Notes: a model not told the origin generated them from the letters alone. 25,468 bases of DNA from Reclinomonas americana ATCC 50394 (GCA_048213135.1 PS015058.1:81934-107401), one strand, 5' to 3'; positions 3 through 25,468 are shown, counted from the first letter of the stretch. Translations and numbers: made by a program.

Positions 3-862
3 CAGTCACCTGCCCAGCCTGTCGCTGAAGATTCGGTTGATGCTGCTGCTCCACAGTCACCCGCACAAGCTGCCGCTCGTTCTCCAGTCGCTGTCGCATC
101 ACCGCCGTCCGCTCAAGCAGCTGCTGGATCTCCGGTGGCAGTCGCTTCGCCGCCACCTGCCCAGCCTGTCGCTGAAGCACCGGTTGATGCAGCTGCCCCA
201 CAGTCACCCGCACAAGCTGCCGCTCGCTCTCCAGTCGCTGTCGCATCACCGCCGTCCGCTCAAGCAGCTGCCGGATCTCCGGTGGCAGTCGCTTCGCCGC
301 CATCTGCACAAGCTGTCGCTGAATCACCAGTTGGCGCTGCTGCTGCTCCGGAGTCACCAGCTCAGCAAGCCGCTGGATCACCAGTTGGCTCTGCTGCTGC
401 TCCCGAGTCACCTGCTCAGCCTGCCGCACGGTCTCCGGTGGCAGTTGCTTCTCCGCCGTCCGCTCAACCTGCTCCAGTGGCCGTGGCTGTGGCATCACCA
501 CCACCCGCTGCCGCCGTGCAATCCCCAACAGAGGATCCGGTGATTGCCGGCTCCCTGGACGAGGACGAGTTGCTGTCGGTCGAAGACACGGTTTTGGCAC
601 CCAATGTTGCGTCGTAACAGCACATTTCATCCGTCACATTTCCACTCACCGCCTCGCCTTGCACCAGCCTGCCGCCGCCGCCGCCATGTCACCCGACATG
701 GGTCTGAGTGAAGAGGACCTCCTGGCACTGCAGCTGTCGCCCACCAGCGGTGGCGATGCGACCGCTACTGTCGGTACCCCTGCAGGCGGTCCACCGGCGC
801 CCACGGGCGTCATGTCACCCGCCGAAGACGATCTTTTCTTGATTGACGAGGACGAATTGTGA
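3..862 (+). CDS. 3' part of a Pro/Ala/Ser-rich low-complexity repeat protein with an acidic tail (5'-truncated by the window)
   Basis: The frame is open from 3 (QSPAQPVAEDSVDAAAPQSPAQAAARSPVAVASPP...). A phase-0 intron (donor GTTTTG at 591 or GTTGCG at 606, acceptor CAG at 667) joins it to 668-862, PAAAAAMSPDMGLSEEDLLAL...DDLFLIDEDEL*. An A-rich 3' region follows. Confidence 0.7.
7..500 (+). repeat. Coding tandem repeat with a 147-bp (49-aa) period, built from ~14-aa SPVAVASPPSAQAA-like subunits
   Basis: CACCTGCCCAGCCTGTCGCTGAAG occurs at 7 and 154, and degenerate copies continue to about 500. Confidence 0.85.
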
Positions 863-1022: not shown

Positions 1023-4000
1023 TCAACGCACGGGTCGTCGAGCTGCGGCGGGATCGGCAGCGGCGGCGGCTGGTGAGCCAGGTGAGCTGGCGACCGGCGA
1101 CGCAGCAGCAGCAACAGGTGATTTTTGCAGCGGTGCGTCGCATGCTCGCGAGAATTCGAGCCAGTTGACCAGCGGAACGGCACCAGGGTACAGCTGTTCA
1201 CGCGGGTCGACAAGGCCAATAGGTGCCGGATTGAGTGTCGGCATGCTGGGCGATTCGCTGTCGTCGGCAGCCGTCAGCATCTTGAAGCGCCGCAGCGTGT
1301 CGCATGCAGCGCGCAGGTTGAGCGGCTGATCGCCCAGCACCGTGTAGGCGGCAATCAGGGCCGCACTCATCGACGCCGTGCGCTCGGGGTCGGCGTTGAG
1401 CATCGAGCTGCACGCCGTCGTCACCTCATGCAGGCAGTGCCACAGTGCACCGTCCGACTGCATGGCAAAGGCACGGTGACGGGCCGCCGCCGAGAGTAAT
1501 CTCAAACCACGTTCCCAGTGCGCCACCGTCAGGCCACCACCGCGAGAGGCCAGCTCTCCCTTGTCGAGCATGATTTGTGCAAAGAGCGAGCACACAAACA
1601 GCAAGTCGCGCTCCAACTCGCGGCAGGCGTTGATCGATGAGAACAGGTGTGACTCGCGCTGGCACAACTGGTCGATGCAGAGGCCGCAAATCTCGCGCGT
1701 CAACTGATGCAGTCGTGGCGGGTGGCCGTGGAAGCGCAAGTAGCGCGTGTACAGCGGCGACAGCTCAAAGCACGTGCTCTCCTCGGCTCCCATGCTGCCG
1801 AGTCCACTCTGCAGCGCATCGGCCGCCAATCTCCTCTGCGACTCGGACAGGTTGATCGGCGCCACCACGCCGTCGTTGATCAGCTCGCGCATCAGGCCGT
1901 CCAGCACCGTCTCCAGCACCGCACCGCCGGCTAGCAACGGCGAAAACTCAATCTCCTCAAAGTGCTCCATCGCCAAGTTGAGCAACACGCTGCGCGTCGC
2001 CATGCGCGACGGGTGCATCACACACAAGAAGTGGAGAATGGCCTCGCGGAACGCGTCCTGCTGCACATCCTGCACCAGCAGCGACCGCAGCATGCCCACA
2101 TCGGCGTCGCGGATCCACGTGTCGGGCAGGCGGGCACCAGTGACATTGCTGCGCGGCGACGACAAAAGTGAGAAGACAGAAGAAGATGCCAGCAAGCGCA
2201 CGCGCACAAGTGAGACGCAACGTCAACAGCTCGTAGTAGAACGGCAGGCGGCAGTCCTCGGGGACGGCGGTCAGAGGCGGTGAGATTTGTTGCAGGCTGA
2301 ACTGGCTCGAGAGCTGCTCCAGATCACCGAATGCCAGCGGTCTCATTGTGACACGGGCCACGGGCTTGATCACGGCCTCCAGGCCAGCAATAATCTGCTT
2401 GCGCGAGGTGACGATGAAAATGGGGCCAAACATGCTGCCCGGAGTGCGCTCCGGCAGCACGTTGACCACTTGCAGCGGTGACACCACATCGTCCAGCAGC
2501 ACAATGTTGCGCCGCGTCGACGAGCGTGCGTTGAGGGCATCGCCCACGCGCTGTCGCAAACCATCACGCGCCTGCGAAGCGCCAGCGGGCAACACCAGGC
2601 GCGCCATTTGCTCCAACTCGGACACCAGCGATGCCTGCAGTAACCAGCAATCAGAAAAAAGAACAACAAATACTCGACAGACAAACAAGCAACACACCTC
2701 CGACACCTGACCACCGGCGTAGCCGCCGAATTCGCGCACATACACCGGACCGTCAAAGTCCGGCTGCGCCTGCAGAGCATTGATCATGCGGGCGGCAATG
2801 GTCGTCTTGCCACTGCCGGCCACACCGTCGAGTACAAACACACTGGCGCCGTTTTGCAGCTTGGTCGGCTCGAGCAGTTGCTGCAGGATGGCCAGCTGCG
2901 ACGGGAACAGCCACGGGCGGAAGGCACTCACAGAAATGTCGGCGGCCAGCGCGTGCGGCGGGGCAAACATGGCAGCGTCCACTGCAGTTCATGGTACCAC
3001 GTGAGCGACAAAGCAAAAAGAGCGCGGAGTGAAATAAATAAACGCAACAAGGATTGGTGAGAGCGTTGGCCATGGCCGGCGAGGCGTTGGCGAGTGCGAG
3101 CGTCAACTGGCGGTACAGCTGATCGGTCGAGGCAAAGTTGCGGCTGAGCACCAGTGTGCGATTGGCACGCAGCGCCACTGGCACACACGACTCGGCGGCC
3201 GTGTCCTCGCCGCGCACCAGCATGGCGTCACGCGGCCAGATCTGACCCGTGACAAAGTGCACCAGGTTCAGCTGCTGACGCGAGGTCATGCGCCACACAG
3301 CATCGCGCAGGAATCCAGGCACCGGGGTGGCGCCGCGGGCAAAGTCGACAAACTGGAAGCGCAGCAGGCCAGTGACCTCGGGGCACAGGAAGCGTTCCCA
3401 GCCGGCGCCAGTCATGGCCGACATGGCCCGCTCAAACGACGCCCGTCGTGGGCCGGCAGCAACGCGCAGCACGTCCAACATGCCGTCGCGAATCTGCTCG
3501 ACACTGTCAAAAGGCACCTGGAGCGCCGGCGAGTGCAGGTGGTCGTGCAGGCGATCCAGAATACTGGCGCTCGACACACCGCGCGCGGCGTCATCGGCCA
3601 ACCCGCCAAAGAAGTCCGGATCGCAGTCTGCCAGGCGCTGGCACAAGTCCACAATCGGTGTGGAGGCGTCGTACACGTCGCCGGCAAACAGTGTCCAGAA
3701 AGCCGGCGAAATGGCGTACGCGGGCACCGGCACCTCTTCCAGCACGGCGGCGGCCATTGCACGACCAAACATGCGGAAAGTGATCTCGGCAATGCCACGC
3801 TCCTGCCCGCCCAGTCGCGACAGCGACACGGGCATCTTGCGACCAAACACATCGGTGCGCGAAAACGCCGGCGTCTGCAAAATGTTCTCCATGAACTGCA
3901 CAAGGATGCAAGTGTGTGTGTGAGAGAGAGTGGCGACACCATGGGGGAACTATTGAAGCAGTCGAGGGTGTGCACGCAACAGGAACAAACATGTTCAGGC

Positions 4001-7000
4001 CAAGCTGCAGACGACCAGTCGTCCACTCAGCCGGCGGCACGGCGTGCAACAACGACACCATCTCCCACACCATTTGCGCGTCAATCGACGGCACCGACAC
4101 CTGACGATGGGTGGTGGTCAGGCGACGGTGCTCCGTGCGAGTCTTCCACAGCACGTCGAGGAACTCCGAGTGCGGTGCGTCGGCCTTTGGCAGCGCACTG
4201 CTAATGTCCTCCACAGCCGACGGCGTCGCCACGGCTGCGCGTGCCGCCTCCATGCCAGCTCGCGACTCGGCGCGCATGAACGGCACCACAAACGCGGCAC
4301 TGCTGACAAACTGCACCGGCTCCACAATGTGCTCGGTGGTGCTCGCAGAGGTGCCGGTCGGAGCCAGTGAGGCAACGACTGCAAAGAGAGAGAATGTCAC
4401 CAAACTGTGCGATTGTAGTCGCACAGTGTGCACGGCATGGCACGCAACAATTGGCCTTCATGAGCTCGTCCAGCACACGGCTGCAGCCCTTGATACGGAA
4501 CCCAAACACCTTGTTGCGGAAGGTGGAGGCTCGCTCGGCCAGCGTCTCCTCGGCCAGACGGAACTGCGCCGGGGTCAAGTCGCGCGTGCGAGTGAGCAGC
4601 ATCATCAGGCGGACGGCGCACTGGTAGTTGAGGTGCGCGTACGCCTCGACCAACGCCGCCGACACCGTGTCGCCCGTCAGGTTGGTGCGCGCCACGCCGT
4701 AACGCTGGTACAGATTCAGCAGCGTCGACAGCGTCAGCTCGGTGCAACGGGCGCTCGCCATGTCGAGCGGCGACTGCTCGAGGTCGTTGGTGTGCGCCGC
4801 CAGCTGACGGACCACATCGGGGCCCTCGGACGACGCATAGCGCAGCAGCTGCGCAATGGCGGTCTCGCGGCACCACGTGTCGAGGGAGGAGTCGTCGGGG
4901 TCCGCAAGCACGTTCTCCTCCGCCGCGGGATCGAACATGAGCAGGAGGTGCAGCAGATTGTTGCCCTGTGCGTCCGACTGCTCCGCCAGGCGCAGCGTCG
5001 GCAATTGGCGCGAGGCACCCTCCGCACCGAGCAGGAAGTGGAGAATCGTCTCCAGCGCCTTCGGGCGACGAGCCGCCGCCAGCACCAGCGGCGTGTACGA
5101 CAGCTCGAGTACCTGCCGCGACAGCAGGTCCAGGAACGAGAACGAGTCGCGGTGTGCGTCGGGGCGGAGCGAGAACGACAGTGCGTCCTCGATCAGCTCG
5201 AGATCGTTGGAGCCAATGGCCTGTGCGGAGAGCGAGTGGTGGTGAGAGACGGGGAGGGGAGTAAAAGAGAAGTCTGCATCTCATCCATTAACCTCGTACA
5301 GCAAGTGTGCGGCAGCCACCTCGTCGGCCGTGACGGCCTCGGAGATCGGTCCAAACAGCGGCACGTGCGAGAGCGCAAACGATTGCAACGACGGCGAAAA
5401 GGCCTTCAGCGCCATGTCCCAGCCACCGGGCGCACCACCAAAGCCAGAGGGAGGCGAGGAGGCAGTCGAGGTGCTGTCGCTGGCACTGGCAGGCGAGGAG
5501 CCCGGCGAGGGTCGGGAGCTCGGGCCGCGGTTGGCGCGCTTGGAGGCGGACTCGCCGGTGCCTGCTCTCAAGCCCTTTTTTCGCCAACGAAAGAGTGAGT
5601 GAGTGAGTTGGGAGGCGAGGTATGAAGCGCACGGAGTGTGCACTCACCTCGGCAGCACGCTTTCGTGACGGGCGCTCCAGCACACGCAGCACGGTGGCAT
5701 CGGTGCTGAAAAACACCTCCGCCGCACCATTCTGATTCCACACCAGCGAGCACAACACCGAGCCGACGGCGCGGGCACGGAAGGAGAACTGCGCGCCCTG
5801 GTCGGGAGAGACCGAGGCTCCGTCGGGGGTGACAATTTCCATGTCCTGCACGAGAGCAAAGGGGGAAAGTTGAATATAGGGAATAGAGAGAAGTGATAGA
5901 AAAGGGGGGGAATGAGCGCACCTTGCTGCAGTGCACCATGGCCGACGAGTCGGCAAACGCCACACCCATGCCGTCGCATGACGGTGGCGCGCCATCAAAG
6001 GTGAAACCGGCCACAATGCGCAGACCGCGGAAGCACGAGTACTCGGGTCCATTCCACACACCCACATCGACGTGGTTGAGCGGACGCGGGACGAGCGAGC
6101 GCAGGTACCGGCCGAGGAGCCAGCAGCAGTAGCGCTCCACGCACGACGGTGCCTCCTTGGTCTCCTGATGCAACATCTGCGTGTGTGTGCGCGCAATTCG
6201 AGAAACCAGTATTCGTCAGGGCAAGTAGCAGAATGGAATAACAGCGAGAGAATAATCACCATGACTGGCATGGAACCACGCAGGCGGACGTCGCAGCCGC
6301 CAGCCACAAAGTGCGTGTGGCAGTGCAGATCGACCGTCAGCGACACCGTGTTCTTGCTGAACTTGTCCTGGCGCTGCGCGTCTGAAATCTGCGACGGGGG
6401 AAAAGCGCGTCACTTGACCGAAAAAGCATCACAGCGGCGGTCATGCACACACACACGCACCTGCGCATAGCGCAGCGACACTTGCGAGTCTGGCAAAATC
6501 TCGGCCGAGAACTTGTCAGTGCTCAGTTGTGCCTGCGAGCCGCGATACACGGTCACCGGCACGGAAATGGGCGGTGCGCCGCGAACTTGCAGCGTGCACG
6601 CCACATCCACCGGGCAGCTGCGGTACTCGGGCTGTCCGCGGCCTACAATCACACGAGTCAGGACACAAGCAGGGATGCTGCCAAGCAGCAATAAATAACG
6701 TACCCTTCTTGAAGAGCAGCGACGGAATGGCGAGTCCGTCGGTGATTCGGAAGCGGTCGGGATTTATGGTGAAGCCTGCAATTAGTCGTATTGTCACACA
6801 AATCAGACAAAAATGCGGCCGATATTGTAAGGGAAAAAAGAGAGGACGCAACTCCAGCACGCCTCACTGCCACCCTCATCAACGACAGCGCTCCACGACA
6901 AGCGGTTCTGACGCGGAACACCCTCAATTGCCTGCGCGTGCGCGAAACGCGGTCGCCAGTATGAGCGATAACGAAATTGGCAATCAACACGCCCCGTCGC

Positions 7001-8205
7001 GACGAAATGGCAGTGCACCGCGACGCACTCACCAAGACCACTTTCACCCCCAATAAACTCACACAGCCTGTCTCCATGTCACTCTCTCTCTCTCATGCTC
7101 GACACACAGAGGCAGACAAGGAGAGAGAGGCGCAGAGGGAGACAACACGGAGAGAGAAAGATACAGAAAGTGGCGCATTGAAACAATGTGTCTTTCCCCT
7201 TGTCTCTTGCTCTCTGTGTGTGGTGCTCTGTGTCTCACTGTTCCACCTGCCCGCACACCGAGTCTATCACGTGCACGGCAGTGAAAGACCACCGAGTGCG
7301 CAGCACACACGCGTGAAAAGGCGTCGTCACAGCCAAACGCCACGAATCCGCCCATGCACACACACACACACACACGCTTGTCTCTGACACTCCCTCCCCT
7401 CTCTCTCCTCCCTACGCGCACACACCTGCCAGTTCTCCGGCGTGCTATCCAAGCACGTCACATGCGGCACCACATGCGTCACCACGCCCGCCAACAGCTG
7501 CAGCGGCGCACGCGCACCACCTCCACTTCCCGAGCCTCCACCTGCGCCACTCGCCATACTCACCGCCGCAGTAGTCATGGACATCATGCCAGACGCGCCT
7601 GCCTGCTGCTGCTGCTTGAAGTCTGAGGCAGCGCGCATGGGTGCGTCAGGCAGCGCAGATGGCCACTGTCCCCATGCTGCTGCTGACGAGCCGCCTGCTG
7701 CTGCTGTCGTGGTGGTGGTTGTTGACGACGAGGAGGAGGAGTCAAGATACGCTGCTGTGTTGTGTGTGTGCGAAATGGCCAGTGAGTGTGTGTTGTCTCC
7801 TCACGCGCTCGCACTGGCGCTCTCACACGCGCGCACCTTGCATGAACGATGGTGGTACTGATGCAGCAGCTGCGGCAGCCGCGGCAGCAGCAGCAGCGGC
7901 AGCGGCGGCGCCTGTGTGCGACATCGCGCCCTGTTGTTGTTGTTGTTGTTGTTGTGTGAGATACGCAAAGAGTTGTTGTTGTTGTTGTTGCGCGGTGGCA
8001 GCACTGGGCATCATGAAGCCAAAAGAGGAGGCGCCAGCAGCAGCGGAGGCACCAACGGGCGTCTGTACGCTGTTGAACAGGTACGAGTCTGCGCGAGAGA
8101 GAGAGTGTGAGCCAAGCTGCGGCTGTGCGCTCTCTTCGAAGAGTGAGTGGAGAACGGACCAGGGTCGCCCCATACTTCGTAGTCCTCAAGCGACGAGCTC
8201 TCCAT
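1023..8205 (-). CDS. Large multi-exon protein: polyQ/polyA N-terminus, duplicated beta-rich domain, NLS-like patch, ankyrin repeats, HECT-like domain without the catalytic Cys, NB-ARC/STAND NTPase, helical C-terminus
   Basis: ATG at 8205 (ACAATGG; MESSSLEDYEVWGDP). Phase-compatible GT-AG introns chain the exons, e.g. 8159-8089, 6852-6776, 4448-4379, 3980-3896, 3048-2982, 2697-2635 and 2221-2149. Stop TGA at 1025-1023. Exon structure around 6900-7430 is the least certain part. Confidence 0.75.
2222..2850 (-). other. NB-ARC/STAND P-loop NTPase domain within the large gene
   Basis: Walker A VFVLDGVAGSGKTT (~2826-2800), Walker B NIVLLDDV, sensor-1 IFIVTSR and a GxP-like CRLPFYYELL, in canonical order and spacing. 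A winged-helix-like segment follows in the next exon. Confidence 0.85.
3060..3895 (-). other. HECT-like domain, internal to the protein, with Ala at the catalytic Cys position
   Basis: FRMFGRAMAAAVLEEVPVPAYAISPAFWTLF ~ FRFxGRLxGxAxxxxxxxxxxFxxxFYKxL; LADCDPDFFGGL ~ LxxxDPxxxxSL; MTSRQQLNLVHFVTGQ ~ xxEERxxLLQFVTGS; VPVALRANRTLVL...STDQLYRQLTLAL ~ LPxAHTCFNxLxL...SxExLxEKLxxAI. Confidence 0.75.
4700..5310 (-). other. Ankyrin-like repeats (3-4, degenerate)
   Basis: HLLYEAIGSNDLELIEDAL, SYTPLVLAAARR...ILHFLL, DAQGNNLLHLLLM and NDLEQSPLDMAS...TLSTLL resemble the G-x-TPLHxA ankyrin consensus. Confidence 0.7.
7861..7990 (-). repeat. Coding trinucleotide repeats (CAA)n/(GCN)n giving polyQ and polyA tracts
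   Basis: Translates as QQQQQQLFAYLTQQQQQQQQ...AAAAAAAAAAAAAAAA in exon 2 of the large gene. Confidence 0.85.
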
Positions 8206-8807: not shown

Positions 8808-9206
8808 CATCCAATGTACGGCATGTTCTTGGGTGGCGACAGTGGCTCCACGGGGTCCGAGGTGGTTAGCGAGTGTGAGATCAGATACGCCAACTCAGAT
8901 CCGAAGCCCTCGCGATCGCGTGGGTCGTCCGAGGGTGGTGCGCTGTGACGAGGCAAAGGGGAGAGGAGAGAGAAGGAGGGAAGAGTGGACGGATGTGAGC
9001 ACAAAACGAAACTGAGCAATGATCTCACTGCCGCGTGTGTGTCTGCGCGCGTGTCACTCTCTTTCTCCTTCTTCTCTTTCCCCTGACGCAACAGTCCATC
9101 CACCAGTGACTGTTGACTTGCGTTCATAATCGGCACAAAAACAACACGCTCACTCTCTTCCGCTCTCACTCACACAATCGACTTCACGATCTGCAGGACT
9201 TTCCAT
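8807..9206 (-). CDS. Putative 66-aa four-exon small protein (MESPADREVDCSLVDGLEIIAHAPPSDDPRDREGFGSELAYLISHSLTTSDPVEPLSPPKNMPYIG)
   Basis: Exons 9206-9174, 9109-9093, 9027-9013 and 8942-8807. Introns are 64, 65 and 70 nt (GTGAGT, GTTGCG, GTTTCG ... CAG), matching local intron size. Spliced length is 201 nt, an exact 67 codons. No homology recognised. Confidence 0.5.
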
Positions 9207-9348
9207 ACTTTTTCCCCCGCAACCCTCTCCTCGGCGACCGAGAACAGCAGAGTACGTAGCGCTCTTCACCTCGCCCCGGCAGCTGGTGCGCAGCGGAAAC
9301 TCCACAAGTCGGCGATCGACGTCGACGTCGAACATCCGAACACCAAAA

Positions 9349-10428
9349 ATGAGGTCTCCCACGCGCGTACACGCCCACTCCCGCGACGTGTGGACGCTGG
9401 CATTTGCCGGTGAGTACGTTGTCTCAGGCGCAGACGACCGCCACATTGTCACCGCGTCGGCGACCACTGGCGCCATTGTGCACTCGCACAAGCACGAAAG
9501 ACATGTGTATGCGTTGGCGGTGACCGCCGACGAGCAACACTGCGTCGCCTGCACCAGTGCGTCCACTGTGAGTATGTGGTCGCTGGGGAACGCTGGCGAG
9601 GAAGTGTGTCGATTTCGCATGGACGCCAACGTGACCATGCATGCAATCGCTCTCACGCCGAGACATCTCCTGGCGCTCGGCGGCGGCAACCACACTGTGT
9701 ATGTGTTTGCCGCGCCCAGTGGCGATGGGGACTGCGAGCTGGAGCAGGAGCCACTGTCGTCGTTCTCGGTGGGTGACCGCGCCAAGCCGTACACATGTTG
9801 CATGGCGGTGTGTGGCGACGACTTGGTGCTGGTGGGTGGGTTCTGTCACGCCATTTACGTGCACTCGCTGGCCGACTGCGGGAGGGAGGTGCGGCAACTG
9901 ATTGGCCACACTGGCGATGTGTTCTCGCTGGCGACGACCGTCGACGGGCTCTTTGCCGTCAGCGGCGGAAACGACAACACCGTGCGCGTGTGGTCCATGG
10001 TCACTGGCGAGCAGGTGCATTGCATGCAAGGGCACACCAATGCCGTGGACAGCGTGGCGGTCTCGATCGATGGGTGTTGGGTGCTGAGTGGCTCCGACGA
10101 CGGCACCGTGCGCGTCTGGTCAATGGACACCGGGGCGGAGGTGTGCCGACTGCCCGGACTCGACAGCACGTGCCAGATACGCTCAGTGGCACTCTCACGC
10201 GATGGACTGCACGCGGCCGCCGGCGACGAGAACGGCATCGTGTCGGTGTGGCGCACCCCGTTCGGTCATGCCATCGATGAACTTCGAGCAATCGAACTGG
10301 CACTGGCCGTCGTGCACGATATGCAAGCCGGCGACGACAAGGAGGAGCGATGTCTGATCGAGATGGTGATGCGCTGCTTCCTGCTGGAGGAAGCGCGGGT
10401 GGTGGCGAGGAGAGTGGCGTGGCAGTAA
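9349..10428 (+). CDS. WD40-repeat protein (about 7 blades plus a short helical C-terminal tail), intronless
   Basis: ATG in AAAAATGA context at 9349. Clear repeats GHTGDVFSLA...VSGGNDNTVRVW, GHTNAVDSVA...LSGSDDGTVRVW and IRSVALS...AAGDENGIVSVW. Confidence 0.93.
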   Translation: MRSPTRVHAHSRDVWTLAFAGEYVVSGADDRHIVTASATTGAIVHSHKHERHVYALAVTADEQHCVACTSASTVSMWSLGNAGEEVCRFRMDANVTMHAIALTPRHLLALGGGNHTVYVFAAPSGDGDCELEQEPLSSFSVGDRAKPYTCCMAVCGDDLVLVGGFCHAIYVHSLADCGREVRQLIGHTGDVFSLATTVDGLFAVSGGNDNTVRVWSMVTGEQVHCMQGHTNAVDSVAVSIDGCWVLSGSDDGTVRVWSMDTGAEVCRLPGLDSTCQIRSVALSRDGLHAAAGDENGIVSVWRTPFGHAIDELRAIELALAVVHDMQAGDDKEERCLIEMVMRCFLLEEARVVARRVAWQ

Positions 10429-19842: not shown

Positions 19843-21638
19843 TCATGGGCTCGAGTTTACAGTGTCATCACAAGCGACCGCTGGTGGTGCTGGCGGTGGT
19901 ATTGAGGGTGCTGTGGGATCTACAGCGTCAACCGTCGGCTCTGTTTTCACTGGATCGGCACTGGGCCGGTTCACCTTGGACTCCGACATGATCAGTTGCT
20001 CCAATTCGTCCTGCACGTGCGTGCACGAGGTGAGGGAGGCGCGGAAAGGATAAGCAACAAAACCTGACGATCGTACGCAACTCGCCACCCCACAAGTTCG
20101 GCGAGTCGGAGAAACACCGCGTCACAATCGCCAGGCACGAAGACCTGCGATGCCGTCGACGTTAAGTGAGGACAGTGCAGTTCGACATGGCAGTGGTGGT
20201 GCAGCACGCAACATCCCGAAAGTTGGTGGCGCTGTCAAACGTGAACCACTGCCAGCCATCAAAGAGCTCGGCACCGGGACGGCGCGGCATGCCCACACGT
20301 TGCCGATTGACCAGCAGGCGTGGGATGCATGGGTGTGTCTTGTTGTCAAGTGAAGTGAGGAGAAGGAGAGGAAAGGAGGACAAAAGCAACAACAGAACGG
20401 CAACAATAACAAGAGGAAGATACGAAACGAGGTGGATGAGGTGAGAGAACGGCTTGACTTGCAGCGAGGTGCCGGCCACAATTACGAGGTCCGCCGACTG
20501 GAAATCCTGTCACCGTTGATGAGACTGGATTTGTCAAGCATGAAAAGAATACTGCGCTCTCTCACTGCACCGACTCGCGCAGCTCGAAGAAGCGACTCGG
20601 CATCGCTTCTCCAAACAACACCACATCCGGTCGCACCACACCCGAGCGACACTGGCCGCACCGATCTGTAGGAGCTCTCAGAATCCATTTTCGTTCTCTC
20701 GTGGCGTTGACTGCATCACGCAACAGACTGTGCCGGCCATGGCCGCGTCTGCGGTGGCGACGTGCACTGTGAGAAGAAAGAGAGAAAGGACCACACATGC
20801 AACACACAACGATCGTACCAAGCATCGGTTGATAATCAGCTGGTCGCCGGCAGCGAAAGCACGACGCCGTAGCCATGCTTCCGTGTGCTTCGATTAACAG
20901 CTCTGGCCGAATGCCTGCATACGGTCTTTGTAGCGAGAGGGAAAACAAGGTAACGAAGCACACAAGGCAGCACCTGCTCGGCGCTCCAACCCATCCACTG
21001 CGACATATGCATAAGTACACAGCAGCTGCAAATCACTTGGCACGACAACGACACACCTTGCTGTGTGAACACTCTGCGTGCATGAAGAAGGACGAGGAGT
21101 GAGCGCATTCATGCAGTAAGCAAGCCACTGCCACGAATGCACAAACCGATGCAACATGCCCTTGTCTTGCAGCAGACGGAAGAAAAAGTGGGATGGACTG
21201 GGTCGAACATCTTGCCCTCCCACCTCGCGCAGCATGTCGTAGATGGGTGTCGGATCCTGTCGAAAGTACCTGCAGGTACGATGTGAGAGCGTGCTGGAGT
21301 CAATCAGTGATTCTACATAAGAACGAACTCGGCAGAGAAGAGTATCTGCGGATCGCCAACTTCCGGGTACCGTTCTGCACAAAACACATCACTCAAACAA
21401 TTACCCACAGTGCTGGTCCCTTGCGCAATCCATCATCTCACCAGCGAGGACTTCGTAGAGTCCACCGGGAGAGCGGAAATCGCGGATCCTGTTGTCGACA
21501 TGATGATGAGGCACATGCGTATGAGAGAGAGAGAGAGAGAGAGGCATCCTGCCACACAGACGCACCCGCATGAGGTGGAGATGCCTGCGCCACAGGCAAT
21601 CACCACTCGACGAACTGTGAAAGTGTGAGAGAAGTACG

Positions 21639-22162: not shown

Positions 22163-24684
22163 TCACGCCACCGGCTGCAGCAACTGCGGATTGCGATCCT
22201 CCAGCACCGCCACCTCCTGCGGCGAGAACTTGGCCCGCACCATGGCCGTCACGCGATCCCACTCCGGCTTGTCCTGAGCCCCGATGACGCTCTTGATGTT
22301 GTGCAGGTACTGCTCACGCTGCGGCGGCGGAAGGGTGACCAGCGTAAAGTGCAGCAGCTCGTCGCCAAACATCTCCGGATCCTGTCGGTAGATGCGCTCG
22401 TAGACCGGCGGCTGCGACGGCGGCGGATACACGCGCTGCGAGATTGCCATCAGGTTCGTCTCCTCCCACGCGAAGTGCTCGATGGTGCTTGTCTTGATCT
22501 TGGCCAGCTCCTGGCGCACACGCTCCACGTGCTCGCGACGCTCATCTGAGCCGGCGGCCGTCGCCGCAGTGCGCTCCAACAACGGCGCCAGTTGCATCAG
22601 CGACGAATGCTCGTCCTCCATCTCGTGGTGATCGGTGGTGGCCTGCGAAGTGCAGTTCGGTGCATCGGCCAGCATCAATGGATACATGACCAGCTCCTCC
22701 ATGCGGCTGTGGTAGATGGCGGCGGCGACGAACTTGCGCCACACATCGCGCAGATCGGCCAGCGCCGCATCCTCGGTGATGAGATGCTCGTTGTTGCCCA
22801 TGTCCACCAGTCGGTTGACCCAGCCACGCAGCGACACATGCTGCAAGACGTTGGAGCTCAGCGGCGGCAAGTACGGCACCGCGTTCTTGATGTTGCGCCG
22901 CAGCTGCGCCTCGGTGATGCCGGCTGCCTCGTAGAATGGCACCATGTAGTCGTGCGCCATGGTGGCGTAACGGTGCAGACGATCAAGCGATGCTGGCACG
23001 GTGAGGTTGCGCACCCACACGATGATCGGCAAGCGCGCCAACGTCGGAATCAGCAGAGCGTCGGCCATTGTAAAGTGCTGTCCGAAAGCAAAGCCTTCCG
23101 GCGCCACCTTGGCGTCGATCTCTCGGAATGCCGCCTGCAGCTTTGGCACGAACTCGGCCTATGGAGACACCGAGGGGTGTGTGAGAGGAGGGAAGAATTC
23201 AAAGTGGCACATGTCACACACACACACACACACCTGCATGCCGCTGGCCATCATGGTCTTACCCCAGGCCGGCGTAAAGTCGTTGTTGATAAACTGCACA
23301 AACTCCGTCAGCTCGCCCGCAGGCACATCGGCCGGGCGAAGTGACGGCTGCGGGAACGTGCGCTCCATCCACTCGAGCATCTCGCCGCTGTCGCCCAGCA
23401 TAGTGCCGTCGCGAGCCACCAGGAACGGCACGCTCTTGCTGGGATTGGCTGCGGCGTACCACGGCTCGGTGAGGGCGGTGCCCGAGTCGCGCGCGTCGAC
23501 GAGCAGGCCCTTGAACTTGGCCGCCACCAGCACGCGATACGAGAACATGCACATCTTGGTGGTGAACAGCACAAAGGCGCATCCGTCGGCCGGAACCACC
23601 GGTGCGTGGACAGCCTGCTCCACCGCCTGCTGCGCCTGCTGCTGAGCCGCGTGGGAGGCATCCTGCGCGTGCTGCTGGGCCGAGGCCTGTGCCTGCTGTG
23701 CCTGCTGTTGAGCCGCGTGGGAGGCGTCCTGCGCGTGCTGCTGAGCAGAGGNNNNNNNNNNNNNNNNNNNNNNNNNNNNNNNNNNNNNNNNNNNNNNNNN
23801 NNNNNNNNNNNNNNNNNNNNNNNNNNNNNNNNNNNNNNNNNNNNNNNNNNNNNNNNNNNNNNNNNNNNNNNNNNNNNNNNNNNNNNNNNNNNNNNNNNNN
23901 NNNNNNNNNNNNNNNNNNNNNNNNNNNNNNNNNNNNNNNNNNNNNNNNNNNNNNNNNNNNNNNNNNNNNNNNNNNNNNNNNNNNNNNNNNNNNNNNNNNN
24001 NNNNNNNNNNNNNNNNNNNNNNNNNNNNNNNNNNNNNNNNNNNNNNNNNNNNNNNNNNNNNNNNNNNNNNNNNNNNNNNNNNNNNNNNNNNNNNNNNNNN
24101 NNNNNNNNNNNNNNNNNNNNNNNNNNNNNNNNNNNNNNNNNNNNNNNNNNNNNNNNNNNNNNNNNNNNNNNNNNNNNNNNNNNNNNNNNNNNNNNNNNNN
24201 NNNNNNNNNNNNNNNNNNNNNNNNNNNNNNNNNNNNNNNNNNNNNNNNNNNNNNNNNNNNNNNNNNNNNNNNNNNNNNNNNNNNNNNNNNNNNNNNNNNN
24301 NNGGCCGAGGCTTGTGCCTGCTGTGCCTGCTGTTGAGCCGCGTGGGAGGCGTCCTGCGCGTGCTGCTGAGCAGAGGCCTGCGCAGAGTGCGCAGCATCCT
24401 GCGCCTGCTGCTGAGCTGAGTTCGCAGCATCAGTGACTGTGTAGGTCGCTGATCGCTGCACCGAGCCCGCTTGCTCCTCTGCCTGCTTGGTCACCGACTG
24501 CGCAGCCGTCTGTGCGTCGTGCGCAGCTGACTTCCCAGCGGCTTCCGCCTCCGCAGCGACTCTATCGGCGATAGATTCTAACACACGCGCACACGCACAC
24601 AGCAGTTAATAATGTGCGCTACAAGCAACTAATCACACGGACGAACGCTACGAAACGCGATTGCTTTGAGTGAGCGCACCCCAT
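22163..24684 (-). CDS. N-acylated (MGC) repeat-containing glutathione S-transferase-hemerythrin fusion protein (spans the assembly gap)
   Basis: Exon 1 24684-24657 (MGCAHSKQS), intron 24656-24578. A/Q/H repeats follow. GST-N: CMFSYRV...NPSKSVPFL...LGDSGEMLEWMERTFP. GST-C: FAFGQHFTMADALLIP. Hemerythrin/HHE: QHVSLR, YHSRMEELVMYP, DHHEME, EHFAWEE. Intron 23233-23159. Confidence 0.85.
23630..24430 (-). repeat. Coding 66-bp (22-aa) tandem repeat AQQHAQDASHAAQQQAQQAQAS, unresolved across the gap
   Basis: Near-identical units flank both sides of the N run. Confidence 0.85.
23752..24302. other. Assembly gap (N run) inside the tandem repeat
   Basis: 551 Ns. Confidence 1.
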
Positions 24685-24987: not shown

Positions 24988-25452
24988 TCAGCAGCGGCCA
25001 CCGCGCAGACGGAGCACCAGGTGAATGGTGGCCTCCTTGGTGATGTTGTAGTCGCCGAGAGTGCGTGCGTCGTCCAGCTGCTTGCCGGCGTAGATCAGGC
25101 GCTGCTGGTCGGCGGGAATGCCCTCCTTGTTGCGGATGAGCTCCTTGAAGGCCTCGACAGTGGTGGTCGGCTCGGCGTCGAGGGTGATGGTCTTGCCGGT
25201 GAGGGTCTTGACGAAGATCTGCATGCCACCGCGCAGGCGGAGCACCAGGTGAATGGTGGCCTCCTTGGTGATGTTGTAGTCACCGAGCGTGCGGGCGTCG
25301 TCCAGCTGCTTGCCGGCGTAGATCAGGCGCTGCTGGTCGGCCGGAATGCCCTCCTTGTTGCGGATGAGCTCCTTGAAGGCCTCGACGGTGGTGGTCGGCT
25401 CAGCGTCGAGCGTGATGGTCTTGCCGGTGAGTGTCTTGACGAAGATCTGCAT
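24988..25452 (-). CDS. Divergent di-ubiquitin precursor (2 x 76 aa + RC tail), intronless
   Basis: Two units identical in protein, [11 protein letters not shown]...LRLRGG, differing only at synonymous sites. Each has 19/76 differences from canonical ubiquitin. Confidence 0.95.
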
Positions 25453-25468
25453 GATTGTTGTTGTTGTT

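Follow-up and report, generated by a model that had tools for sequence, protein, structure and literature searches.

Evidence for a Reclinomonas americana gene that may join a cysteine-less HECT-like domain to an NB-ARC NTPase

We analysed a 25,468-nucleotide stretch of DNA from Reclinomonas americana ATCC 50394 (GCA_048213135.1 PS015058.1:81934-107401; the window, with a GC content of about 60%), in which the minus strand from 8205 to 1023 carries a chain of long open frames whose phase changes every few hundred bases. A splice model built from sequence signals alone, namely GT..AG introns, reading frame and GC content at third codon positions (GC3), joins these frames into 14 exons, here lettered A to N (Table 1), that begin with an ATG at 7077, end with a stop at 1023 and comprise 5034 nt (1677 codons) with no internal stops. 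We read the locus, with a probability that we put at roughly 55%, as one gene for a multidomain STAND nucleoside triphosphatase (NTPase) in which a HECT-derived domain, with both lobes present and the catalytic cysteine missing, would lie directly N-terminal of an NB-ARC domain. Such a protein would probably be a new domain-architecture variant of the STAND NTPases.

The exons of the model have GC3 values of 0.57-0.89, reaching at least 0.77 in eleven exons from 6775 onward, and are separated by 13 introns of 61-106 nt with a GC content of 0.40-0.61. At the model coordinates a clean AG acceptor was present in 12 of these introns, while the acceptor before exon H (~5541) is uncertain. The heptamer GTTGCGT, an unusual donor, is common to four of the 13 introns (at 4448, 3980, 3048 and 2221, minus strand), and the remaining donors are of the GTGAGT, GTGCGT, GTACGT, GTGATT, GTTAAT and GTGTGT types. 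A preliminary description of the locus had placed phase-consistent introns at 4448-4379, 3980-3896 and 3048-2982, and these are indeed GT..AG introns of 70, 85 and 67 nt in the phases it gave. A pseudogene was also considered and was rejected because none of the 14 exons is interrupted and their GC3 is coding-like.

The NTPase was recognised by Pfam NB-ARC (PF00931), which matched the open reading frame (ORF) at 1957-2988 (E 3e-7; 30.4 bits, gathering cut-off 23.5); AAA_22, AAA_16 and NACHT (16 bits) ranked below it. This ORF reads through a 63-nt in-frame intron; when the exons were scanned separately, the matches to exon L (21.3 bits, profile positions 8-55) and exon M (10.9 bits, positions 98-146) were colinear. 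STAND NTPases are characterised by a Walker A motif of the form GxxxxGKT/S, a Walker B motif of the form hhhhDD and a sensor-1 arginine that follows a hydrophobic strand. All three are intact in exons L and M, as GVAGSGKTT, IVLLDDV and the sensor-1-like IFIVTSR, and with a Pfam score above the cut-off the intact-looking STAND NTPase of the preliminary description is borne out. The NB-ARC-TPR family FxSxx_TPR of NCBIfam gave a weak match over the stretch from Walker B to sensor-1, and PADLOC returned only P-loop-level matches. Relatives of the NB-ARC ORF were not found by a word-based search, and a PDB sequence search with it was uninformative.

In NB-ARC proteins, the helical ARC1 and winged-helix ARC2 subdomains are marked by GLPL and MHD-type motifs, which CRLPFYY and ILHFLCVMHP resemble by eye only. 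We regard the NTPase as being of NB-ARC type, and inspection by eye suggests that exon N probably includes a winged-helix part. The whole of this last exon matched no family in Pfam (E<=10), NCBIfam or PADLOC, and a PDB search with it gave only a chance-level match. The statement in the preliminary description that no LRR, WD40 or TPR array follows the NTPase is thus in keeping with scans by these three collections. As modelled, the protein has no recognisable sensor repeat array (LRR, WD40, TPR or ANK) C-terminal to the NTPase of the kind that strictly defines an NLR.

Upstream of the NTPase, exon K is the candidate HECT-derived domain, with landmarks FRMFGRAMAAAVLEE at 3734-3778 and LVHFVTG at 3245-3265 (minus strand). 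An exhaustive phmmer search with this exon over 1.84 billion representatives matched four proteins, of which one, a 1295-aa repeat protein (P0003), was set aside as spurious. The other three are relatives with 53% (P0001), 56% (P0002) and 33% (P0004) identity, and resemble single-exon ORFs from short contigs. No full-length or fused relatives were found among longer proteins, proteins of near length gave only P0002 and P0004, and no related loci were found in metagenome, genome or viral collections.

For comparison, a reference set of HECT domains was assembled by scanning metagenome contigs for the HECT active-site motif, which yielded 117 ORFs. The 42 of these with at least 300 uninterrupted residues upstream of the motif and 25-60 downstream were aligned over their last 370 residues. 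Every one of the 26 rows scanned with Pfam matched HECT (E 1e-64 to 1e-103), with the domain at the last residues of the protein. We also observed giant-virus-type contigs (L003, L013, L015, L016, L017, L019 and L023) whose encoded proteins, up to ~1490 aa long, have at their C-terminus a divergent HECT domain that retains AHTCFN; among the viral HECT ORFs, eight of the nine scanned pass the Pfam HECT cut-off.

Three methods placed exon K in the HECT family. The language-model look-alikes of exon K in ESM-Atlas were HECT clusters in 30 of 30 cases; the highest score was 0.95, with 198 of 256 features in common. With hhalign, the four-member family of exon K and its relatives aligned to the 42 canonical HECT domains over 167 columns (P 1.8e-4, score 37.6); with all query columns used, the C-lobe being present in two members only, query 38-275 was placed on template 107-367 of 370 over 220 columns (P 4e-4). 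The register was identical in all 12 combinations of four query sets with three template sets (P 4e-4 to 1e-2). Reversed profiles scored 22.2 and 18.9, 19 column-shuffled templates scored at most 17.8, and five other exons of the same gene scored 10.8-15.7. An unfiltered hidden Markov model (HMM) of the HECT alignment gave 6.5 bits for exon K, 4.8 for P0001 and 4.3 for P0002, scores that none of 1000 shuffles (500 + 500) reached (maxima 2.2 and 2.9). The matched pieces appeared in the right order, from the N-lobe motif F..GR...A through L..FVTG to the last helix. By these profile methods, the homology spans both HECT lobes and is weak but reproducible, and we consider it quite likely that exon K is of HECT ancestry.

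Several results weigh against our reading of the locus. The Pfam HECT profile (PF00632) gave exon K only 12.9 bits against a cut-off of 23.9 (E 0.089), over residues 38-79 on profile positions 38-72, and matched just one of the four family members at E<=10; fragments of exon K had no Pfam match, and a PDB search with the family profile returned no HECT chain (E<=10). The hhalign probabilities were 35-49%, all below 50%, and P0004 scored -2.0 bits with the HECT HMM. The family showed no hhalign similarity to eight giant-virus HECT domains (P 0.35), whereas these same domains aligned to the canonical HECT set with P 2e-18. An AlphaFold2 prediction of exon K from the four-row alignment reached a predicted local distance difference test (pLDDT) score of 45, and the best Foldseek match to it (E 0.77) is meaningless at such confidence. 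Beyond exon K, the Pfam NB-ARC match covers profile positions 8-146 of 248, that is, the nucleotide-binding part only and not ARC1 or ARC2. As for conservation of the HECT-like/NB-ARC architecture, the relatives are all fragmentary, apparently single-exon and too short to bear on it. All splice junctions are drawn from sequence signals, and an in-frame ATG 14 nt inside exon L (~2967) keeps a separate NB-ARC gene conceivable.

The poor results with curated tests (Pfam, the PDB profile search and the viral HECT domains), together with P values of only ~1e-4 to 1e-2, sub-50% hhalign probabilities and a low-confidence structure, are what would be expected if exon K were a lineage-specific, mostly helical domain whose resemblance to HECT is due to chance or composition, so that the protein would be an NB-ARC STAND protein with a long N-terminal region. 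We think this unlikely, as the three methods agree on both the family and a colinear register (N-lobe motif, FVTG motif and C-terminal helix), and the shuffled, reversed and same-gene controls all scored far lower. The HECT-like domain of the preliminary description therefore stands as a remote homologue, by ESM-Atlas, hhalign and HMM, and falls short of the Pfam cut-off.

If exon K is HECT-derived, its active site appears to have been lost. In three alignments, the column of the catalytic cysteine is occupied by Ala244 of exon K (3164-3166) and by alanine in P0001, the only two family sequences that cover it. Provided that the alignment is right, this replacement would prevent the domain from forming a ubiquitin thioester, and the label 'pseudo-HECT' used in the preliminary description fits. 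A free C-terminus and the catalytic cysteine are both thought essential for HECT ligase activity, and in the model ~600 residues follow the HECT-like domain, which makes it internal rather than the extreme C-terminus. In a low-confidence alignment, exon K is also gapped at the template segment F.v..fG...L.pnG..i.VT, which we take to be the E2-binding subdomain; these gaps, if real, would argue against E2 binding.

The end of exon K falls close to where a HECT protein would be expected to stop. In 98 of the 117 reference ORFs the protein ends 36-39 residues past the alanine of AHTCFN, and exon K ends 42 residues past the aligned alanine, 3-6 residues beyond the canonical HECT stop, so that the splice donor sits almost exactly at the usual HECT protein end. 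On this alignment, the donor lies where it would be expected had a HECT gene become fused to the gene downstream of it.

The same coincidence suits another possibility, that two adjacent genes on the same strand have been misjoined, with a degenerate HECT-type gene ending at ~3049 and an NB-ARC protein starting at the ATG at ~2967. HECT domains usually end their protein, as in those 98 ORFs and in all 26 scanned rows, and exon K ends about there; the ATG lies only 14 nt past the proposed acceptor, and the junction 3048-2982 was read from sequence signals. However, if the intron at 3048-2982 is retained, the HECT frame runs without a stop for 98 more codons and ends at 2755 inside the P-loop exon, so a separate upstream gene would have to overlap that exon in a non-coding-like frame with a GC3 of 0.47. 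The 67-nt gap, moreover, matches the other introns of the gene in size, base composition and exact donor heptamer. Across the intron, GC3 of the HECT frame drops from 0.78 before to 0.47 after, and the NB-ARC frame has 0.78 downstream. Three GT..AG pairs in all connect the two frames without meeting a stop; apart from this intron, both would remove the conserved domain end. This switch in GC3 and the restricted choice of introns favour a single spliced gene, and we judge a misjoining of two genes to be rather improbable. The placement of a HECT-like domain directly N-terminal to NB-ARC with no recognisable repeats after it, as proposed in the preliminary description, held up within the reach of the tools used.

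The N-terminal half of the protein yielded few recognisable features. Ankyrin-like repeats had been claimed for exon I, but this did not hold up: no Pfam family, Ank included, matched at E<=10, and our own Ank-repeat HMM, built from the repeats of ten Pfam-verified viral ankyrin proteins, gave 3.4 bits, a score reached by 17 of 1000 shuffles. The sole ankyrin-like motif in the exon is YTPLVLAAA at 5071-5097 (TPL.LAA-like). A phmmer search of exon I against the PDB found nothing, and a single-sequence AlphaFold2 prediction consisted entirely of helices with a pLDDT of 40.4. In the region 5293..7077, the 'beta-rich' part is spread over exons of 15-85 aa, and Pfam scans, made exon by exon rather than on joined exons, found no families in the five exons scanned.

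Further upstream, the exons listed at 8205-7426 encode 209 low-complexity residues rich in Q, A and S, with a GC3 of 0.49-0.73. They are frame-compatible with the exon at 6931-6868 through a 494-nt intron, far longer than the other introns of the gene, and without this splice the frame from 8205 stops after 241 aa. Alternatively, the exon at 7077-7033 may supply its own ATG. The protein may thus have a length of ~1680 aa, or of 1871 aa with the upstream exons included.

We suggest that the gene most likely arose when a HECT-type gene and the NB-ARC gene downstream of it were fused, and that a splice donor took the place of the former end of the HECT frame. In Apaf-1, CED-4 and plant NLRs, the NTPase cycles between ADP- and ATP-bound states and oligomerises when activated, and the adjacent N-terminal domain clusters to signal. 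By analogy, the NB-ARC module here would act as an ADP/ATP-dependent switch and an oligomerisation platform. Because the HECT-like module occupies the position of the signalling or adaptor domain of those proteins, it may have become, catalytically dead, a non-catalytic interaction surface whose copies would be brought together upon oligomerisation. Candidate input sensors would be the N-terminal region or the ~200-aa helical C-terminal region. The preliminary description's ideas of an integrated decoy or an E2-binding module may be compatible, by analogy, with such an interaction surface.

The surrounding window contains genes of several other kinds (Table 1). The WD40 gene, of the seven-blade beta-propeller type, is arranged head-to-head with the NB-ARC gene, ~1 kb from the possible start at 8205. 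Apaf-1-type NB-ARC proteins carry WD40 repeats in the same chain, but the WD40 gene here is on the opposite strand and therefore cannot belong to the NB-ARC gene. A gene for a PAP2-like protein is also among the neighbours, and the SIR2-family gene, which is split over at least two frames, probably has introns. The ubiquitin-like gene at the window end consists of at least two repeats of 76 aa that are identical as protein and share 219 of 228 nt; each repeat ends in LRLRGG, and a two-residue tail follows the last. About a quarter of the positions in the repeat differ from what we take to be canonical ubiquitin, which is unusual for so conserved a protein. At the other end of the window, an open frame at 3-617 (plus strand), which continues beyond the window start, encodes an A/P/S-rich repeat protein; within it, positions 7-427 carry 2.2 tandem copies of a 147-bp unit (92% matches) with sub-periods of 48-54 bp. 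The apparent GC dip at 23-25 kb is explained by 551 consecutive N (23752-24302) in minus-strand coding sequence that is repetitive and Q/A-rich. Rfam found nothing in the window.

Table 1. Positions of the predicted exons and other annotated features in the window (a range with several parts lists the exons in order of transcription).
Feature	Position	Strand	Content or evidence
Possible upstream exons	8205-8160, 8088-7837, 7754-7426	-	GT..AG junctions and frame; membership in the gene uncertain
Exons A-H	7077-7033, 6931-6868, 6775-6704, 6642-6461, 6388-6260, 6176-5922, 5845-5648, ~5541-5293	-	Open frame and splice sites; N-terminal region (5293..7077) including the part earlier called 'beta-rich', plus S/P-rich linker
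Exon I	4449..5220	-	257 aa, helical
Exon J	3981..4378	-	132 aa, middle region; no Pfam family; hhalign against the HECT alignment P 0.2
Exon K	3049..3895	-	282 aa, HECT-like domain, both lobes
Intron K/L	2982..3048	-	67 nt, donor GTTGCGT, acceptor CAG
Exon L	2698..2981	-	Start of NB-ARC; Walker A GVAGSGKTT 2800-2826
Exon M	2222..2634	-	Walker B IVLLDDV 2485-2505; sensor-1-like IFIVTSR 2401-2421
Exon N	1023..2148	-	374 aa and stop; probable winged-helix part (by eye), ~200 aa helical, A/P/S-rich tail
WD40 beta-propeller gene, seven-blade type	9130-10428	+	Pfam WD40 E 4e-28
SIR2-family gene	20562-21388	-	
GST_C + hemerythrin ORF	22163-23158	-	
Tandem ubiquitin-like gene	24988-25467, runs off window end	-	Pfam ubiquitin E 7e-61

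A more specific proposal is that the protein is an innate-immune receptor in which the pseudo-HECT serves as an integrated decoy, baiting effectors aimed at the HECT ligases of the host. The integrated domains of plant NLRs provide an analogy for such a decoy, and the loss of the catalytic cysteine would suit it. The neighbouring genes are, however, ordinary (WD40, PAP2-like, SIR2, hemerythrin/GST and ubiquitin-like), and the decoys of plant NLRs adjoin a recognisable sensor repeat array, of which Pfam found none here. We consider an immune decoy of this sort very improbable. Returning to the interaction-surface role, a fuller version of it would be that an NB-ARC gene in a poorly sampled protist lineage captured a HECT domain, that the cysteine was then lost, and that the domain is now the N-terminal signalling domain of an NLR-like switch; we regard this as possible but doubtful. 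If true, it would define a new class of STAND output module, in which oligomerisation is coupled to the ubiquitin system by binding and not by catalysis, and it would be a first case in nature of a HECT fold that is both internal and non-catalytic.

STAND and NLR proteins are built by shuffling, with one shared nucleotide switch joined to a variety of signalling domains, and a new domain at the N-terminus is a pointer to an output pathway that is also new. In the literature searched, we found no HECT-derived domain described for NLR-like proteins, whether of plants, animals, fungi or bacteria. An internal HECT copy that lacks the cysteine yet has kept an open coding frame in two or more related genomes (those of the window and of P0001) would be a natural pseudo-enzyme, and the surfaces it has retained would show what the HECT fold does without catalysis. 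For now the finding is of limited value, given that the search of 1.84 billion representatives turned up no more than three relatives, all fragmentary.

Promiscuity in domain fusion is a known trait of STAND proteins. We found no HECT domain joined to NB-ARC or NACHT in full-text literature searches, which were mostly at the abstract level and had supplementary tables outside their scope; within those limits, the suggestion in the preliminary description that the combination of HECT and NB-ARC is undescribed agrees with what we found. In the passages of PMC8195603 that mention them, HECT and NACHT occur only as alternatives to each other, each as a partner of SPRY domains. The words 'HECT' and 'ubiquitin' are absent from the main text of a survey of fungal NLRs (PMC4986451), where 12 N-terminal classes are given without HECT. 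A further apparent match was to the word 'hectare'.

Compared with the HECT E3 ligases, which in the 26 reference ORFs include E6AP/AZUL, NEDD4-like C2-WW and HERC/RCC1 types, exon K aligns remotely but colinearly over the N-lobe and the C-lobe, and its landmarks (F..GR...A, then L..FVTG, then the last helix) follow one another at the expected spacing. It differs from them in having alanine in place of the cysteine, in its internal position and in its failure to reach the Pfam cut-off, and its domain is ~88 residues shorter than the 370-column reference. Among known HECT ligases, HACE1 has ankyrin repeats followed by a C-terminal HECT domain, and exons I to K would follow its arrangement (repeats, then a middle region, then HECT) if exon I were ankyrin-like, which was not confirmed here; Ank was found in none of the 26 scanned reference HECT ORFs. 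Compared with the NB-ARC STAND NTPases (Apaf-1, CED-4, plant NLRs and the bacterial and fungal NB-ARC-TPR proteins), the predicted protein is alike in its Pfam score, its Walker A and B motifs and its TSR motif, and in placing a non-NTPase domain immediately before the NTPase, where CARD, CC or TIR would be. It is unlike them in that no WD40, LRR or TPR array follows and that ARC1 and ARC2 are unmatched by Pfam, and also in that its N-terminal neighbour is HECT-like, with ~1000 residues upstream of the NTPase.

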